A stretch of DNA of 7,261 bases from a virus (IMGVR_UViG_2778261276_000010:1-7261); one strand, 5' to 3'. Shown: positions 1 to 7,261, numbered from the stretch's first letter. The notes: generated from the sequence alone by a model not told the origin. Numbers and translations are program-made.

Positions 1-186
1 ATGGCAGAAAGGTTCGTGAAAACGATGAAGGAAGACTACATCGCGTTCATGCCGAAACCGAATATAAGAACGGCATTGCATAATCTTGCAGTGGCGATCG
101 AACATTACAATGAAAACCATCCGCACAGTACGTTGGGTTATCGCTCTCCGCGAGAATATCGACGTCAGCGGGTAACGTTAACTTAA
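1..186 (+). CDS. IS3-family transposase (OrfB/integrase core), C-terminal fragment; 5' part lies outside the window
   Basis: The translation [21 protein letters not shown]...[22 protein letters not shown] resembles the C-terminus of IS2 InsD-type transposases (..[33 protein letters not shown]..) recalled from memory. The ATG at 1 is probably an internal Met. Confidence 0.7.
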
Positions 187-223
187 GATACACCCCCTGT
201 CTGGAAATAAGGGGGCAAGAACA
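1..223 (+). mobile_element. Right end of an IS3-family (IS2-like) insertion sequence, truncated by the window start; includes the transposase 3' end and a terminal inverted repeat
   Basis: Positions ~188-223 read TACACCCCCTGTCTGGAAATAAGGGGGCAAGAACA, which resembles the IS2 terminal inverted repeat as I remember it (..TGTCTGGAAATATAGGGGCAAATCCA). The exact end point is uncertain by a few bp. Confidence 0.55.
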
Positions 224-227
224 ATGA

Positions 228-971
228 TTAGATTCCCTGGTGAGTAAGAATTTTACTTTCTGAACTCCTCTGAGAGTATTGACTTGGAGAAACACCAAAA
301 TAACGTCTAAATACATAAGTAAAGTATGAGACACTGGCATAACCACAGACCTTAGCTACTTTACTAATAGGATAACAACGAGTGCTGAGTAAATATTCAG
401 CCATTTGCATCCTCTCATCAAGTAGGATCTTACTGAATGATACCCCCTCTTCTTTCAATTTCCTCTTTAGTAAACTTTCGCTGAGATATAATCTTGATGA
501 TATATCCTTAAGATGCCATGGTGCAGATAAATCCGTATGAATAATCGTTTTAACTTTAGCCCCTGTGCTTTTCAAACATCCAAACAGAAATACTCCAAAT
601 TGTTTTTCAGAAGAAAATGCAGAGAGACATGTAAAAGCAATAGACTCATCAAAAATTTCTATATATTCAGCACAGTGATTAGCCCAACTAATTAATCCTT
701 TAATTAAACTGAAGTCAGCAAAGTTTATTTTTAAATAAGATGGATATTCCCTACAATCAGAAATATCCCTTAAGTTATTAGCTTTCAAATAGCGACTAAT
801 AAACTCAGCGCCAAAATCCGCCACTATCACTCTTTCAGGATATGTCAGGAAAAAATCTCTATAGCTAGAGTCGACAAGTACAGATAAACCTCTATCCAGA
901 AACACACTCTCTTTTCCGAAATAAACATCAAAGGACTCCAAAATCAATATAACTGAACATGTAGTTGCCAT
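228..971 (-). CDS. AraC/XylS-family transcriptional regulator, AppY/YdeO/GadX-like
   Basis: The C-terminal HTH region (WHLKDISSRLYLSESLLKRKLKEEGVSFSKILLDERMQMAEYLL..CGYASVSYFTYVFRRYFGVSPSQY) closely resembles E. coli YdeO and AppY as I recall them, and the N-terminus MATTCSVILILESFD matches their MxxVCSV motif. I prefer the ATG at 971 (GGTGGA Shine-Dalgarno-like sequence ~5 nt upstream) over the ORF-track start at 980. Sampled 60-nt stretches are about one-third G+C. Confidence 0.8.
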   Translation of the reverse strand: MATTCSVILILESFDVYFGKESVFLDRGLSVLVDSSYRDFFLTYPERVIVADFGAEFISRYLKANNLRDISDCREYPSYLKINFADFSLIKGLISWANHCAEYIEIFDESIAFTCLSAFSSEKQFGVFLFGCLKSTGAKVKTIIHTDLSAPWHLKDISSRLYLSESLLKRKLKEEGVSFSKILLDERMQMAEYLLSTRCYPISKVAKVCGYASVSYFTYVFRRYFGVSPSQYSQRSSESKILTHQGI

Positions 972-1554
972 ATCATCCACCCAATTTAACTGAAACCAGG
1001 ATGAAGTATATGCATATAAAGTTCACTTTGCCAAACTTCAGTATAAAAAACCACATAAAAAATAGGGTGTGATAAAAAATACCGTAAAAATAAAGTAAAG
1101 GATTATAAATTCCGTTACAGTTACAAATGATACTAAAGAAACAATTCCTTAGAAAACCTTATTTACAGCCAATAAGTAAGACACTTATATGATATCAAGT
1201 TTTCATAAAACATAACTAGGCTAAATAGCTGCGCCTAATACCGCTACACTTTTGCCAGCCCATGTTTGCCTCCGGGTATTGACCCCTTCTCTACGCAACT
1301 TCAGTTCCCACCACCAACTTTGCGGCAGCTTTGTAGGATCAATGTCTAAAAGAATAATGGTGACCGATAAGAAAACGACTGAATAACTGCAGATTTTCGC
1401 TCGAAACCTTCCTGTCAGATCCATAGCGAATCAAGTGCTGAATGTCACAGTATCGAACAGAAAACAGTGACGATCTAACCCTTCAAGAATATTCTACGAT
1501 TGTTCTGTTTAGGAAAAGCAAGGCGGGAAGTCGGGAGATAAGTCATTGATAAAG

Positions 1555-1620
1555 TGGCGGAGAGAGGGGGATTTGCCCCCCCGGTAGAGTTGCCCCTACT
1601 CCGGTTTTCGAGACCGGTCC
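1555..1620 (-). other. 3' partial copy of tRNA-Ser (anticodon CGA): anticodon stem-loop, long variable arm, T-arm and acceptor 3' strand with CCA; probable att-site remnant of an integrated element
   Basis: The reverse complement reads GGACCGGTCTCGAAAACCGGAGTAGGGGCAACTCTACCGGGGGGGCAAATCCCCCTCTCTCCGCCA. It has a CCGGU/ACCGG anticodon stem with loop CUCGAAA, a long variable arm, a 5-bp GGGGG/CCCCC T-stem and a TCTCTCC-G-CCA 3' end. The 5' acceptor strand and D-arm are absent: upstream sequence is unrelated. The T-loop reads GGCAAAT rather than the conserved TTCRAAT. Confidence 0.65.
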
Positions 1621-1699
1621 AATCATCAAACGAAACATAAAATTAATTCACATTATGAGGAAAAGTATCTTTTTTGTACTTGTAAATTCAAAGGCTTAG

Positions 1700-2569
<870 letters not shown>

Positions 2570-2588
2570 GTCTTTAAGTGATAAGCAT

Positions 2589-2630
2589 AAACCGCAGCAC
2601 GATCTTCTTGCATACGACGTGCTACGGTTT
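2589..2630. terminator. Hairpin between the convergent GIY-YIG-like gene and pin; possible bidirectional terminator
   Basis: AAACCGCAGCACG (2589-2601), a 16-nt loop, then CGTGCTACGGTTT (2618-2630). This gives a 13-bp stem with one G-U wobble, followed by a U-rich run when read on the plus strand. The long loop makes it atypical. Confidence 0.35.
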
Positions 2631-3184
2631 CATTTATCTCCGACCGGAAACTTCTTATACAGTGTCGATATACCAACATCATAGATGATCGCCACCTTTT
2701 GGCGAGGAACGCCTGATGCAATTAATCGCCCGGCCTGCGCCCATTGTTCTGGTGTAAGTTTGGGACGACGTCCACCAATTCGTCCCTGTGCGCGAGCTGC
2801 TTCCAGTCCAGCTTTTGTTCGTTCAACAATCAGTTCACGCTCCATTTCAGCCAGGGCACCCATCACATGAAAGAAAAAGCGCCCCATTGGGGTACTGGTA
2901 TCAATTGAATCCGTCAGACTACGAAAGTTGATGCCTCGTTCGCGCAACTCCTCCACCAGCACGACAAGATGCCGCATACTGCGCCCCAGTCGGTCCAGTT
3001 TCCAGACCACCAGCGTGTCACCTGCCGATAATGTCCTGAGCAGCTTTTTCAGTCCTGGTCTGTCGGACTTTGTACCGCTTATCTTGTCTTCAAAAATCAG
3101 CTCACATCCTGCACAGTTCAGCGCATTACGTTGTAGATCGGTATTCTGGTCATTTGTTGATACACGTATATAGCCAATAAGCAT
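2630..3184 (-). CDS. pin: Serine-recombinase DNA invertase of the Pin/Gin/Hin/Cin family
   Basis: The translation from MLIGYIRVSTNDQNTDLQRNAL... is near-identical in layout to e14 PinE and Mu Gin as I recall them, with the catalytic Ser in the RVS motif, GRxxKL and a C-terminal HTH (IYDVGISTLYKK). Start chosen at the internal Met (ATG 3184..3182) with GGGGGA 8 nt upstream; the ORF-track start at 3220 adds 12 unlikely residues. Confidence 0.9.
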   Translation of the reverse strand: MLIGYIRVSTNDQNTDLQRNALNCAGCELIFEDKISGTKSDRPGLKKLLRTLSAGDTLVVWKLDRLGRSMRHLVVLVEELRERGINFRSLTDSIDTSTPMGRFFFHVMGALAEMERELIVERTKAGLEAARAQGRIGGRRPKLTPEQWAQAGRLIASGVPRQKVAIIYDVGISTLYKKFPVGDK

Positions 3185-3238
3185 GTTAAATCCCCCTGGT
3201 AAAAGCAGGAATGATGCCATTTGCTTGTTATTTCTTCA

Positions 3239-3264
3239 TTTTCATAAACGTTGGTTTGGGAGAA
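3239..3264. repeat. Invertase crossover site A (hix/gix-like 26-bp site, core TT at 3251-3252) containing a 14-bp inverted repeat (3251-3264)
   Basis: TTGGTTTGGGAGAA at 3251-3264 is the exact reverse complement of 5081-5094. The flanking half-site TTTTCATAAACG shows 8/12 dyad symmetry with the other half. Confidence 0.6.
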
Positions 3265-3600
3265 TTATCTCTGGCTGGCACTGCATCGGGTGTCATTGGT
3301 CTGAATGGGTATGTAACGATTCCGTTAATTATTTCAGGTTCCCGGAGAACACTGATTATTCAGTGGGGGCAGGCGAGATTTGGTGGGTCTGGTGGTGAAG
3401 ATGCCGGATATCTTAATGATTTTCCTTTTGCCTTTCCGTCAGCATGTTATGGAATGATAGTTAGTCATGTGGGGCATACACCTTCAGGCGCAGGAATCCT
3501 GTCGGCTTCTGCAATTACATCAAATCAGTTCCGCGGTTTTTCAAGCATAGCGACTGCTGCAAACGCTGTATTAGGTCGTTATATCGCTATAGGGGTGTAA
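3253..3600 (+). CDS. Alternative tail-fibre C-terminal cassette (Sv'-like), currently silent; lacks its own start and would fuse in frame to the constant N-terminal region after inversion
   Basis: The frame is open from the inverted repeat (GGT TTG GGA GAA, codon-aligned identically to the same sequence in the tail-fibre gene) to TAA at 3598-3600. The ORF-track N-terminal extension MMPFACYFFIFINV (3211-3252) is probably not translated. Confidence 0.6.
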   Translation, partial: GLGELSLAGTASGVIGLNGYVTIPLIISGSRRTLIIQWGQARFGGSGGEDAGYLNDFPFAFPSACYGMIVSHVGHTPSGAGILSASAITSNQFRGFSSIATAANAVLGRYIAIGV

Positions 3601-3601
3601 T

Positions 3602-4039
3602 ATGTTTTATAGTCCATCTTTAAACATTTTTGTGAATCCTGCACTTAAGGATGATTACATTAATGCAAATTCATGGCCAGATGATGCTCTGGCTGTCAGT
3701 GATGATGTTTATAATGAATTTGCAATAAATACGCCCCCAGATGGCAAAATTCGTGTTGCAGGAGAGAATGGATTACCCACATGGGCACTAATACCTTCAC
3801 CATCACATGAAGAACTTATTCAACAGGCAGAATCAGAAAGGCAATTATTGCTTAATCAGGCCAACGAATACATGAACAGTAAACAATGGCCCGGTAAAGC
3901 CGCTATTGATCGTCTGAAAGACGAGGAACTGGCGCAATATAATTTGTGGCTGGATTACCTGGACGCACTGGAGCTGGTTGATACCTCCAGTGTGCCAGAT
4001 ATTGAATGGCCTACGCCTCCGGCAGTTCAGGCCAGATGA
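3602..4039 (+). CDS. Tail-fibre assembly protein (Tfa/Mu U-like), partner of the silent cassette
   Basis: Begins 1 nt after the cassette stop. The C-terminus LDYLDALELVDTSSVPDIEWPTPP matches the conserved Tfa C-terminal motif, also seen in the other tfa copy. Confidence 0.8.
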   Translation: MFYSPSLNIFVNPALKDDYINANSWPDDALAVSDDVYNEFAINTPPDGKIRVAGENGLPTWALIPSPSHEELIQQAESERQLLLNQANEYMNSKQWPGKAAIDRLKDEELAQYNLWLDYLDALELVDTSSVPDIEWPTPPAVQAR

Positions 4040-4613
4040 CATCCGGCGCTGTGCTGGTATCTGTTGCCGTCACCGCGTCAATGTAATCCAGCACAGTGTT
4101 AAGTCGGGTGGTCTCTGCCTGCATCAGCTTCCGCCCGGCCTGCAATTTAAGTTGAATCAGACTAATGGAAGCCATTGCAGTATTAATCAGTGACTGACGC
4201 TGTACTTCTGCCGCGTCTACTGCGGCGCTATGCTGTGCCTCAGTATCGGTCACCCATTTCTTACCATCCCATTTATCGAATGGCGTTAACGGGGCGATAG
4301 TGGTTGTATTTTCAGGATAATCACCCGGAGCTGTGATTTCTTTGGCGTCTCCCGTTTCGGTGTTATAGACGATTTCACCGCGATGGTCTGGCACATATTC
4401 CCATGAGTTTAAATCCATCGAACGGCAGATAGCATAACCCGCCTTATGTATACCAGGTTCATCCAGACAGGAATATGCAGGGATACCGACACCAATGGCA
4501 AGATATTCATTTGAAGTAGAAATATATTCCCGAGTTTTACCATCATAGTTATAGACGGTAATATTCCCCGCCTTCGTGGCAATAAGCTCGCTATTTAATA
4601 CGGCGTTATCCAT
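4011..4613 (-). CDS. Tail-fibre assembly protein (Tfa), partner of the currently expressed tail-fibre variant
   Basis: 200 aa with C-terminus VLDYIDAVTATDTSTAPDVIWPELP, the same Tfa motif. The start overlaps the tail-fibre stop as TAATG, with GAGGG ~8 nt upstream. Its 3' end overlaps the other tfa convergently by 29 bp. Confidence 0.8.
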   Translation of the reverse strand: MDNAVLNSELIATKAGNITVYNYDGKTREYISTSNEYLAIGVGIPAYSCLDEPGIHKAGYAICRSMDLNSWEYVPDHRGEIVYNTETGDAKEITAPGDYPENTTTIAPLTPFDKWDGKKWVTDTEAQHSAAVDAAEVQRQSLINTAMASISLIQLKLQAGRKLMQAETTRLNTVLDYIDAVTATDTSTAPDVIWPELPEA

Positions 4614-5383
4614 TATGCAGCCCTCACGATATAGTTAAATGCAATATTTCGTGGACGGGTTTCACTCCCGCCAGTATTACCGATACTCCCTCGTGAATGA
4701 AGTGTCGGTGATGGGATCAGACTCCCTCCTGTATTTGTGGCATCAAGTCCCCGTCCTTGTGTGTATGTCTTTTTGAAAATCGTAGCCAGTTCCCATTCAT
4801 CTTTTGTGTCGTAACCATCATTGGCAACAACAATATGGCGGTGTTTTTCCAGCATCCCTGTCTGAATGCTCAATAAAACACGTCCTGCATCAATACCGCG
4901 CCCGTCATCCCAGCCACGAATAAACTCACCACGTAAATCAGGCAATTTATTTGTCGGATAAGCCTTTGCCAGTTCCGGGTATTCTTCAGCAGAAAAAGCC
5001 GCACCGTTGCATTTCAGCCAGCCTGTTGGCGGTGTGGCTGAAGGCCATGGAACAGGCACACCAACAGGTAATGCAGAGCCTTCTCCCAAACCAAGGTTTT
5101 CGAGAGCCGTTTGCACAGTGCCATCCGATTTGATATCGCCAAACGGATTCTTGCGGCTTAACAGCAGCGCGCGAAGTGCGGTAAGTAACTGGTCGTGCCG
5201 CCCCTTCTCCAGGCTGGCACCGGATGCCTCCACCACGCTGCAAAGTTCCTCCTGCAACATGTCAAAGTAGTCATCATCCAGATCGGTGGCAGGTGTGCCG
5301 GTCTGGGGGTTACCACGGGTAAAACCGTTCTTACCCGCGCCGAACTTATCCTTCTGCGCGGTTTTCGTGTCTATACGATGCAT
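4613..5383 (-). CDS. Short tail-fibre protein: constant N-terminal region (codons 1-101, outside the invertible segment) fused to a variable C-terminal region with a phage tail-collar-like motif
   Basis: 256 aa. The C-terminal part (..[47 protein letters not shown]..) resembles the phage tail-collar domain. GGAG lies 7 nt upstream of the ATG. The 14-bp inverted repeat falls at codons 98-101 (..LGLGE). Confidence 0.8.
5081..5106. repeat. Invertase crossover site B (hix/gix-like 26-bp site, core AA at 5093-5094) containing the 14-bp inverted repeat (5081-5094)
   Basis: TTCTCCCAAACC-AA-GGTTTTCGAGAG has half-sites with 9/12 dyad symmetry and resembles hixL (TTCTTGAAAACCAAGGTTTTTGATAA) and gix sites from memory. 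Confidence 0.65.
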
Positions 5384-5386
5384 GGA

Positions 5387-5536
5387 TTACTCCGGATATC
5401 CTCGCTGCTGCCGTGATTGACCAGGCTTGTAGGACTTCCAGCCTTCACCTTTGTGATTTTCACAGTAGCCAGATGGGTCTGTTGTGGTGTTGCGACAGCC
5501 GCGAACACGGCAAGCCTTTGGTGTGCGCGGTGGCAT
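5387..5536 (-). pseudogene. 49-codon ORF resembling the N-terminus of a phage HNH endonuclease; probable remnant at a deletion junction
   Basis: My own translation is MPPRTPKACRVRGCRNTTTDPSGYCENHKGEGWKSYKPGQSRQQRGYPE. The C-x4-C...YC..H pattern followed by QRGY is typical of the start of phage HNH endonucleases (~110 aa) that sit next to terminase genes. Here the ORF stops 3 nt before the tail-fibre ATG. Not in the supplied ORF track. Confidence 0.4.
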
Positions 5537-5599
5537 ATTCACTCCCTAAAAAACGTATAGCATTATCGCAGACACTTAATGAATGCCTGCTGAATGCCA

Positions 5600-5803
5600 C
5601 TAATCGTCGAGTTGCAATACACCGTGCTCAAGTGACTCTGAGTAAGCGATCAGCCCTGTGTATTCAGGGATAATCTCGCCATCATCCGCTTCGAATTCCG
5701 GGATTGTACCAGTGGTGATGGTGTATTGGGGCTGACCATCTTCTTTCGCGAATGCTGCTAGGTCTTCAATCTGCTTAGCTGTAAGAACTACTGTCATGCT
5801 CAT
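5600..5803 (-). CDS. Small acidic hypothetical protein (65-67 aa)
   Basis: ORF with GAGG 8 nt upstream of the second ATG (5797), so the true start may be 5797. No recognisable motif. Confidence 0.5.
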   Translation of the reverse strand: MSMTVVLTAKQIEDLAAFAKEDGQPQYTITTGTIPEFEADDGEIIPEYTGLIAYSESLEHGVLQLDD

Positions 5804-5815
5804 ACCTCAGTTGTT

Positions 5816-5838
5816 AAAAAGCCCCGCTATTGCGAGGC
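5816..5838 (-). terminator. Rho-independent terminator downstream of the lysis cassette
   Basis: The minus-strand transcript reads GCCUCGC-AAUA-GCGGGGC-UUUUU: a 7-bp GC-rich stem with one G-U pair, a 4-nt loop and a U5 tail, 24 nt after the stop of the membrane-protein gene. Confidence 0.45.
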
Positions 5839-5861
5839 TATGATTGACTAAAGTGATGCTG

Positions 5862-6137
5862 TCAGGTGTGGGTCCAAATGAATTTAACAATCCCAATAAT
5901 GCTAGCCAGAACGCCAAAACCAAAAATAAATTGACCACATACCCCTATGATTCCCGATGCAATGGCACCGGCATTTGTCTGAGCATTTTCGTTTATGCTC
6001 GCCCCCACTAGATACATAATCAAACCAACTATGAGAGATGCGATAATCCAATGTTCCACTGCTAATACAATTACAATGCTCAAAATATCTGCTAAACCAT
6101 CACTATGACCACTCACTGCATATCCTTGCTTTGACAT
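5862..6137 (-). CDS. Small integral membrane protein (91 aa, 2-3 predicted hydrophobic helices), function unknown
   Basis: Hydrophobic stretches ILSIVIVLAVEHWIIASLIVGLIMYLVG and GAIASGIIGVCGQFIFGFGVLASIIGIV. Lies immediately downstream of the spanin genes. Confidence 0.55.
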   Translation of the reverse strand: MSKQGYAVSGHSDGLADILSIVIVLAVEHWIIASLIVGLIMYLVGASINENAQTNAGAIASGIIGVCGQFIFGFGVLASIIGIVKFIWTHT

Positions 6138-6203
6138 TTGAAAAATTCATCACTGGATTATAATTGTTTACACCCTTCATAGTCGTTCGAATATGATAAA
6201 AAA

Positions 6204-6740
6204 TCAATTGTGGGGGATAGCGTTATTTGACTCTCTCAACGAGTCGTAAATACGTTCACACGTCATCCCGGCGGTGTAGCGTTCGTCAGCGATTCCAGCA
6301 TAACGTTTAGCTTCTGCTGCAATATCTCCGAGCATGTCGGCGAACATTCCGGCGTCGGCGTCGGTTGTTTTGCTTCGGACGGCAGCGGCAAGATCAGCGG
6401 TGTGCTTTGCGGCGTCCAGGCGTGCGGCAAGCTTTGTTGCTTCGGTACGCAACTGGCTAACAGTGGCAGACAGGCCAGCAGCAGTGGCAGCAGATTTAGC
6501 GGCTTGTGCTTGTGCATCTTTTACAGCCTCATCACGGGCAATTATGCGCCCTTGTTCAATCCAGCGTGCGGCAGTCTGCGCGTTCGCTTCCTGTGAAGAT
6601 TCCATGCTATTGTGGTCAGCCCACTTCTTTTGCCAGCCCCGCTCACTCCAGATGTTCCCGACAAGAAATGCACCAGCCAACATCAGCAAAACAATGATTG
6701 TTTTCCACCGCGCCTGAACAAAAGCAAAGACCGCTGTCAT
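6204..6740 (-). CDS. Rz-like i-spanin (inner-membrane spanin subunit)
   Basis: Has an N-terminal transmembrane helix ([20 protein letters not shown]) followed by an Ala/Gln/Lys-rich, coiled-coil-like periplasmic domain. The start overlaps the endolysin stop as ATGA. It contains an embedded lipoprotein ORF. Confidence 0.8.
6263..6517 (-). CDS. Rz1-like o-spanin (outer-membrane lipoprotein), embedded in the +1 frame of Rz
   Basis: Signal peptide [22 protein letters not shown] with lipobox L-A-S-C, then a proline-rich mature region ([21 protein letters not shown]). GAGG lies 9 nt upstream of the ATG. Entirely inside the Rz ORF in a different frame. Confidence 0.7.
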
Positions 6741-7261
6741 ACCAGCAACGCCGCCCGCGCTTTGTTATAACGACTATTTCTGTCAGCCAGTCCATTCTGG
6801 CCACCGTTGATGATCTGCGTTACACGGACAACATCACCTGAATACATCAGACAACCACGTAATGTGAAATACCATGCAGCAGAACGGGCTGCATGTTTCT
6901 CCTGTGTCAGCAACTCTGGTGTGCTGATCAGATCCAACTTCAGCGCCGCACCGCATTTGGCGTAGTTCTCGCGGCCGGTGATTTGAAGCAGGCCACGACC
7001 GCGATATTTCCAGCCGTCACCCTGGCTGTTATTCCCCATGCGGTCACCATAAACCAGATTGGCTATTTGCGGCTGGTGGGCTACCTGCTTACCATCGACA
7101 CGCCCCAGCATTTCACACTGATAAGGCGTCAGGCGTTTACTAAAGGTTTTCTTCAGCCCGTCTACCGAGTAGTTGAAGCTTTCCACCAGCGAGGTAAAAC
7201 CAGCAGATTCATGCCCAACTTGTGCAATGAACATGGCCTGATCGTTAACTGCTGTGATTCC
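6737..7261 (-). CDS. Phage endolysin, glycoside hydrolase family 19 (chitinase-like lysozyme); 5' end lies beyond the window
   Basis: Motifs [15 protein letters not shown] (two Glu about 9 residues apart) and [15 protein letters not shown] match the GH19 signature. The frame stays open upstream of the Met at 7234 to the window edge (..[19 protein letters not shown]), so the real start is probably off-window. Confidence 0.85.

Follow-up and report, generated by a model that had tools for sequence, protein, structure and literature searches.

A short AT-rich stretch near one end of a viral DNA raises the question of what its regulator gene is and to which mobile element it belongs. The window (the whole stretch analysed, IMGVR_UViG_2778261276_000010:1-7261, 7,261 nucleotides) begins with the end of an insertion sequence, followed by a gene for an AraC-type regulator, a fragment resembling a tRNA and a run of prophage tail and lysis genes. 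Such an arrangement could be read as a novel regulator on its own islet beside a prophage. Positions 228-971, however, very probably represent an orthologue of patE within a conserved phage-borne cargo module, the product being a presumed activator of acid-resistance genes. The module consists of the following features:

1-223, plus strand: 3′ terminal remnant of an ISEc48-like element of the IS3 family (IS2 group), recognised by the IS2 TnpB profile, Pfam rve_3 and an alignment with the full-length relative L006
224-227, no strand: ATGA, the 4 nt that separate the IS end from the stop codon of patE, read from the sequence
228-971, minus strand: probable patE orthologue, an AraC/XylS-family transcriptional activator; intact 247-aa ORF with 98% identity to WP_000246059.1
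972-1128, minus strand: patE upstream region, which travels with the gene; homologous to L008 and L009 and holding a sigma-70-like site
1129-1220, no strand: AT-rich spacer, conserved with the module and without a match to L008 or L009
1221-1276, no strand: terminal piece of 56 nt left by an IS630-family (ISEc33-like) element, matching the ends of annotated IS630-family/ISEc33 transposase genes in many genomes with up to 98.2% identity
1277-1554, minus strand: core-chromosome DNA of about 280 bp normally found just downstream of serU, identified by its match to the serU locus
1555-1620, minus strand: 3′ 66 nt of the tRNA-Ser gene serU, from the anticodon stem to CCA, contiguous with the match to the serU flank

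The reading frame of the regulator is intact and extends from an ATG at 971-969 to a stop codon at 228-230, as in the RefSeq annotation. A GTG at 980 offers an alternative start for a 250-aa product, but the ATG at 971 is more likely: it gives the N-terminus MATTCSVI, which aligns with the N-termini of YdeO, GadW and AppY. The N-terminal domain is similar to those of YdeO and GadW, and the C-terminal domain is a double helix-turn-helix. [quoted passage not shown] Residues 157-234 match Pfam HTH_AraC (60 bits, cut-off 26.6) and HTH_18 (58.2 bits, cut-off 33.6). Among solved structures the DNA-binding domain of GadX is closest (3mkl, E = 2.4e-24). Homology with YdeO, GadW and AppY spans the full length in alignment. 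The intact frame, the Pfam matches and these alignments bear out the initial annotation, which had described an AppY/YdeO-like AraC regulator of 247 aa. In databases the gene carries only the generic RefSeq/NCBI label 'AraC family transcriptional regulator'; PHROG 1450, which matches over the full length, is labelled 'unknown function'.

The gene is AT-rich and horizontally acquired. Its coding sequence has 34.5% G+C (26.6% at third codon positions), the adjoining 972-1250 has 30.1% and the whole of 228-1250 has 33.3%, compared with 48.3% for 2570-7261. The one-third G+C previously given for the regulator region was thus accurate, and the 50-55% given for the prophage part was slightly too high, with 200-nt windows in that part spanning 35.5 to 58%. 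A sliding-window comparison confirms the contrast. A strain identical to window 1-3264 offers a neighbourhood of 31.7 kb for comparison: its stretches of 1023 nt have a mean G+C of 50.5% (sd 6%), only 0.3% of them have 34% or less, and the neighbourhood minimum of 33.2% is the value of the patE stretch itself. The AT-rich island is real because so few stretches of this length reach such values.

The identity of the gene follows from its closest characterised relative. The window protein is identical at 242 of 247 positions (98.0%) to WP_000246059.1 of the O157:H7 strains EDL933 and TW14359, a protein of equal length. The five substitutions are D26E, L29S, Y37S, H153R and L183I, of which L183I is the one inside the DNA-binding domain and is conservative. 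The variant residues are either conservative or recur in relatives: H153 in AppY and in a 79% identical phage protein (P0022), L183 in YdeO, GadW and GadX, and L29 again in P0022. In both EDL933 and TW14359, WP_000246059.1 is the sole AraC-family gene between thrW and the end of a P4-like element, and window 1-3264 is colinear with these genomes at 96.4-96.5%. [quoted passage not shown] 2012, as that work is summarised in PMC10877973. The same gene has been described as 'putative regulator (prophage CP-933H)' (PMC2907692), and Z0314 and Z0316 are tail-fibre genes of CP-933H (PMC4048457). Both lie a few genes upstream of z0321, which fits the gene order in EDL933 (tail fibre, tfa, tfa, gp53-like, pin, GIY-YIG, AraC) and in L007. 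The link between z0321 and WP_000246059.1 is therefore one of position, family and gene order and not a sequence-to-sequence match. The question whether the protein is an orthologue of a named regulator or a new clade is answered in favour of the former by the 98% identity to EDL933 PatE: the gene is already known, and the window holds another patE allele in its usual place.

The next closest group consists of phage-borne AraC regulators of 243 aa (P0027, P0028 and others) with 51-52% identity, which is probably the PsrA/PsrB group of O157:H7. PsrB has been reported to bind the same hdeA region as PatE (PMC10877973).

The DNA that abuts the 3′ end of patE is the end of an insertion sequence. 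The last 61 transposase codons occupy 1-186, matching positions 232-290 of the 301 in the NCBIfam IS2 TnpB profile as well as Pfam rve_3, and the right inverted repeat extends up to base 223. An alignment with L006, a full-length IS3-family relative of 97.8% identity, reaches base 223 (...GGGGGCAAGAACA) and then diverges; the same terminal sequence ...GGGGGCAAGAACA is the inverted copy of the L006 left end. With a transposase C-terminus and an inverted repeat, the IS-like end is not an unrelated sequence. An 'IS2-like terminal repeat' about 4 bp away from the regulator stop had been part of the initial annotation. The distance is 4 nt exactly, and the element does belong to the IS2 group, but it is ISEc48-like, being 95.6-96% identical to full-length elements annotated by NCBI as ISEc48 family. 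IS2 itself was rejected under a working criterion of high nucleotide identity, since identity to it is about 72% (218 nt compared), whereas ISEc48-type elements reach 95.6-97.8%. Nor is this a complete active IS: the 3′ end only is present, annotated as a partial 'integrase core domain' pseudogene. The remnant measures about 251 nt in the lineage of the window and 491 nt in O157 and the phages.

The junction between IS and gene is not a local event. Among 5426 complete E. coli genomes a query across it is covered in 649, against 645-659 for the gene, so that essentially no copy of this patE allele lacks it, and it must be old and inherited. A synteny comparison for IS-free versions, proposed with the initial annotation, returned none of this allele in the same 5426 genomes. 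Apparent 'homologues' of 306-308 aa were rejected as IS-free forms, since they arise by read-through or frameshift into the IS remnant or by a miscalled N-terminal extension. Two such read-through/frameshift variants of 307-308 aa (P0018 and P0020) run into the antisense strand of the remnant; their extended frame is the counterpart of window 47-971 on the minus strand, where the window has a separate ORF at 47-346 (minus strand). P0020 stands for 5 sequences on 16 contigs, and some lineages thus carry a C-terminally altered PatE.

On the other side of the gene, the conserved upstream region holds one sigma-70-like site, TTGGCA-18-TATACT, at 1034 to 1005, 34 nt upstream of the start codon. Promoter-like sites overall were fewer than the shuffled expectation in the promoter/terminator scan, which makes this weak evidence. 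With the IS630-family piece at 1221-1276 and the ISEc48-like piece at the opposite end, the patE cassette is bracketed by two different IS scars.

The tRNA-like fragment comes next. Positions 1277-1620 match the serU locus with about 97% identity in 5405 of the 5426 complete E. coli genomes, corresponding to 2,043,195-2,043,538 in K-12. ARAGORN found no tRNA gene in the whole window, and an Rfam search with permissive E-values returned nothing beyond a spurious plastid-UTR hit and, over the serU fragment, a weak partial hit to tRNA-Sec. The piece is a fossil attR-type core and not a tRNA gene. Its layout is that of an attR junction (phage arm, core, host flank), yet it is located away from serU. 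The arms on its far side are unrelated: the point of divergence is 1616 for lambdoid backbones and 1620 for the pin/GIY-YIG backbone. The whole looks like natural host-flank capture of the specialised-transduction type. Because two unrelated phage backbones abut the serU core within 4 nt of each other, it is conceivable, if improbable, that the retained core acts as a portable secondary attachment or recombination site, through which serU-integrating phages would gain the acid-resistance regulator site-specifically and not illegitimately.

The distribution of the module shows where it belongs. The window is E. coli DNA, with 1-3264 being 100% identical to strain CH4794 and 1-5399 being 99.9% identical to strain G4/9. 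The gene is found in 659 of the 5426 complete E. coli genomes (about 12%), including non-O157 commensal and animal isolates, and among these carriers it always lies within the phage module. A scan of genome contigs with patterns back-translated from the protein gave nothing that tblastn confirmed and is uninformative on the range beyond E. coli. The module of about 1.6-1.9 kb keeps the order ISEc48-like remnant, 4 nt, patE, upstream region, IS630 remnant, serU flank and serU 3′ fragment. The sequenced genomes of three lambdoid phages, mEp332, ev099 and PhiR70_1, also contain window 1-1616 at 98.3-98.6% identity. The annotation of the flanking genes in ev099 places it between a tail-fibre assembly gene (tfa) and int-xis, a position that corresponds to the b region of lambda. 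In strain MS 124-1 it is located at the bio/ybhB end of a lambdoid prophage, and in STEC409 it adjoins argW-intS and its upstream part is cut by IS1.

In the closest relatives of the window the prophage ends are marked by direct repeats of 45 nt derived from thrW. The IS remnant of EDL933 and the neighbouring P4-like integrase are separated by 45 nt that duplicate the thrW 3′ end. In G4/9, the closest genome, one thrW copy lies left of the window, 308 nt from its start, and another adjoins the prophage integrase 24.5 kb away; CH4794 likewise has one copy on the left, at about 308 nt. In all three genomes patE lies between or just inside these repeats. Since the repeats lie outside patE, the regulator is part of the att-delimited prophage and occupies the end away from the integrase, and the literature rightly calls it 'prophage-encoded'. 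The earlier proposal that the regulator lies outside a tRNA-delimited prophage and is a separate acquisition does not hold: the tRNA in question is the serU fossil, which fails as a prophage boundary with its 3′ 66 nt only and with bracketing repeats that derive from thrW, and the module itself occurs in lambdoid phages. The P4-like integrase of O157 was considered as the owner of patE and rejected, as the thrW 3′ duplicate lies in between; the module is also found without a P4-like element in the phages, MS 124-1, STEC409 and G4/9.

To the left of the window, CH4794 has a separate island between two thrW 3′ duplicates (L001 3881-14732), which carries a type I restriction-modification system, the toxin-antitoxin pair AbiEi/AbiEii and integrase genes in a degraded state. 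The same place in O157 is taken by a P4-like satellite with an ABC-three-component system. The stacked contents at thrW in CH4794 indicate several elements in tandem there.

More distant relatives suggest how the module arose. Two proteins with 82% (P0021) and 79% (P0022) identity are encoded between the Q antiterminator and the holin of lambdoid prophages. Homology of the window with these regions (L008 and L009) spans only 1128/1129 to 230/234, that is the gene and 157 bp upstream. A hairpin followed by a T-run is found just upstream of the homology boundary in the L008/L009 phages, and the holin begins about 170-185 bp after the relatives' gene. P0022 has the same length, a similar C-terminus and a stop codon at the same place, which indicates that the IS did not truncate the protein. 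As the relatives are followed by the holin, the IS replaced DNA of a phage lysis region and not a target gene, contrary to the earlier suggestion that the original 3′ context and possibly a target gene had been lost to it. The L008 gene has 36.5% G+C against 44-45% in its flanks. By its atypical composition, its own upstream region and its setting between conserved phage genes, patE appears to qualify as a phage moron.

The most economical reconstruction from these breakpoints would start from a lambdoid phage in which patE was a moron, a self-contained accessory unit with a promoter of its own, located between Q and holin. IS insertions may then have cut patE out of this setting. It would have come to lie beside the serU attachment site and been captured into a phage genome together with the host flank, to be spread later among backbones by phage recombination.

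What the protein does has been studied for the EDL933 orthologue, and the proposal for the window draws on that published work and on family knowledge, the window allele itself being known from its sequence. PatE of EDL933 activates gadB, gadC, gadE and hdeAB and represses LEE genes (PMC10877973, PMC10057817, PMC11879457), acting on the hdeA promoter between -132 and -45 (PMC10877973). Its expression is RpoS-dependent by a factor of 6 (log2 12.4 in the wild type vs 10.0 in an rpoS mutant) and is high in stationary phase (PMC2907692). By analogy, transcription of the window's patE would rise in stationary phase via RpoS. The C-terminal double helix-turn-helix would bind AT-rich sites upstream of acid-fitness-island promoters (hdeA from -132 to -45, gadE) and activate them. 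The predicted outcome is higher glutamate-dependent acid resistance and, where the genes are present, lower LEE/type III expression.

Several other explanations can be set against a patE orthologue in a conserved phage-borne module. The gene could be a new regulator of the AppY/YdeO type that sits on its own AT-rich islet beyond the prophage and lost a downstream partner or target gene to a local IS insertion. Its composition, the IS end 4 bp from the stop codon, the tRNA-like fragment between the gene and the tail-fibre/pin genes and the generic NCBI label all invite such a reading, but it is very improbable given the 98% identity to the CP-933H regulator known as PatE and an IS junction common to about 649 genomes and 3 phage genomes. 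It also conflicts with the relatives that have the same stop site followed by a holin gene, and with the location of the gene inside a thrW-repeat-delimited prophage in related genomes. Even less credible is an orthologue of a core or K-12 regulator (YdeO, AppY, GadX or GadW) that was displaced into a prophage. YdeO is the best NCBIfam match and, like GadW, aligns over the full length, yet the score against the YdeO equivalog NF007407 is 146.6 bits and remains below the cut-off of 348; against the GadX equivalog NF007432 it is 112 bits with a cut-off of 500 and involves the C-terminal half only. Identities amount to 35% with YdeO, 33% with GadW, 29% with AppY and 36% with GadX, the last over the C-terminal part only. 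AppY is excluded both by its 29% identity and by a locus that differs from the DLP12 site adjoining ompT. A gene that occurs in just 12% of E. coli genomes, always in a phage module, is likewise not what a displaced core gene would predict. These four proteins are subfamily relatives only.

A G+C content of 30-35% is typical of H-NS-bound DNA, and patE falls within this range. It could therefore be patE by descent and yet a silent or drifted passenger here, through H-NS silencing, through loss of the native 3′ end or terminator to the IS or through the five substitutions. The promoter/terminator scan found no terminator-like site after the patE stop codon, and the read-through/frameshift variants of 307-308 aa elsewhere suggest relaxed constraint in some lineages. 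Against this, the ORF is complete and uninterrupted, its five variant positions are either conservative or found again in relatives, and the EDL933 orthologue, functional according to the literature, has the same IS junction. That orthologue is also well expressed in stationary phase, and its level speaks against complete H-NS silencing, at least in that condition (PMC2907692). A silent passenger is thus unlikely, and a patE orthologue that retains its presumed function is the preferred reading.

The remainder of the window belongs to the phage backbone. The pin/tail-fibre backbone ends towards the serU scar with a gene at 1796-2569 (plus strand), which is also conserved in O157 and other strains. 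Its 257-aa product has a GIY-YIG nuclease domain of the LEM-3-like type (Pfam PF22945) and falls into PHROG 5356, a group of unknown function. A Pin-type serine invertase gene at 2630-3184 (minus strand) adjoins a gp53-like ORF. Two tail-fibre-assembly genes at 3602-4039 (plus strand) and 4011-4613 (minus strand) are convergent and overlap, and a tail-fibre gene occupies 4613-5383 (minus strand). The segment 2630-5383 resembles the invertible host-range switch of the Mu G segment; an inverted-repeat search for Pin crossover sites gave nothing convincing. The tail-fibre gene is joined directly to a cysteine-rich ORF of 51 aa at 5387-5542, perhaps a fragment of an HNH endonuclease. Candidate lysis genes, named from their translations, are Rz-like (6204-6740) and endolysin-like (6737-7234). 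The junction beyond 5399 is found in none of the 5426 complete E. coli genomes, the best matches ending at 5399, which points to an unsampled deletion variant of the prophage as the source of the window.

As a discovery the gene matters little, since it encodes a characterised phage-borne activator of glutamate-dependent acid-resistance and hdeAB genes. The value lies in annotation: both the RefSeq gene and PHROG 1450 can be given the name PatE. What is mildly new is confined to the fine mosaic structure of the module and to the finding that sequenced phage genomes contain it. Lambdoid phages that carry the gene together with a captured piece of serU provide an example of host-flank capture and of the spread of a regulator of host stress genes.

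Among known systems, PatE of EDL933 is the closest counterpart. It shares with the window the ISEc48-like remnant 4 nt from the stop codon, the upstream region, the IS630 remnant, the serU scar, GIY-YIG and pin, and the chromosomal neighbourhood is the thrW prophage site in both cases. The two differ in the length of the IS remnant (491 nt vs about 251 nt), in the remainder of the prophage and in the neighbouring island. IS2 and ISEc48 resemble the window remnant in a transposase C-terminus that fits the IS2 TnpB profile and in a terminal inverted repeat ending in CA. The 243-aa regulators are, like PatE, carried by lambdoid phages and homologous over their full length, but they form a distinct clade. 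YdeO, GadW, GadX and AppY belong to the same AraC subfamily and keep the double helix-turn-helix; their loci differ and identity is 28-36%. According to the literature these K-12 regulators and PatE act on the same regulon (gadE, hdeAB), and AppY is likewise phage-borne, in prophage DLP12. Finally, stx in Stx phages occupies the same slot between Q and the lysis genes as the 79-82% relatives, whereas patE in the window now adjoins an att site and lies between IS remnants.
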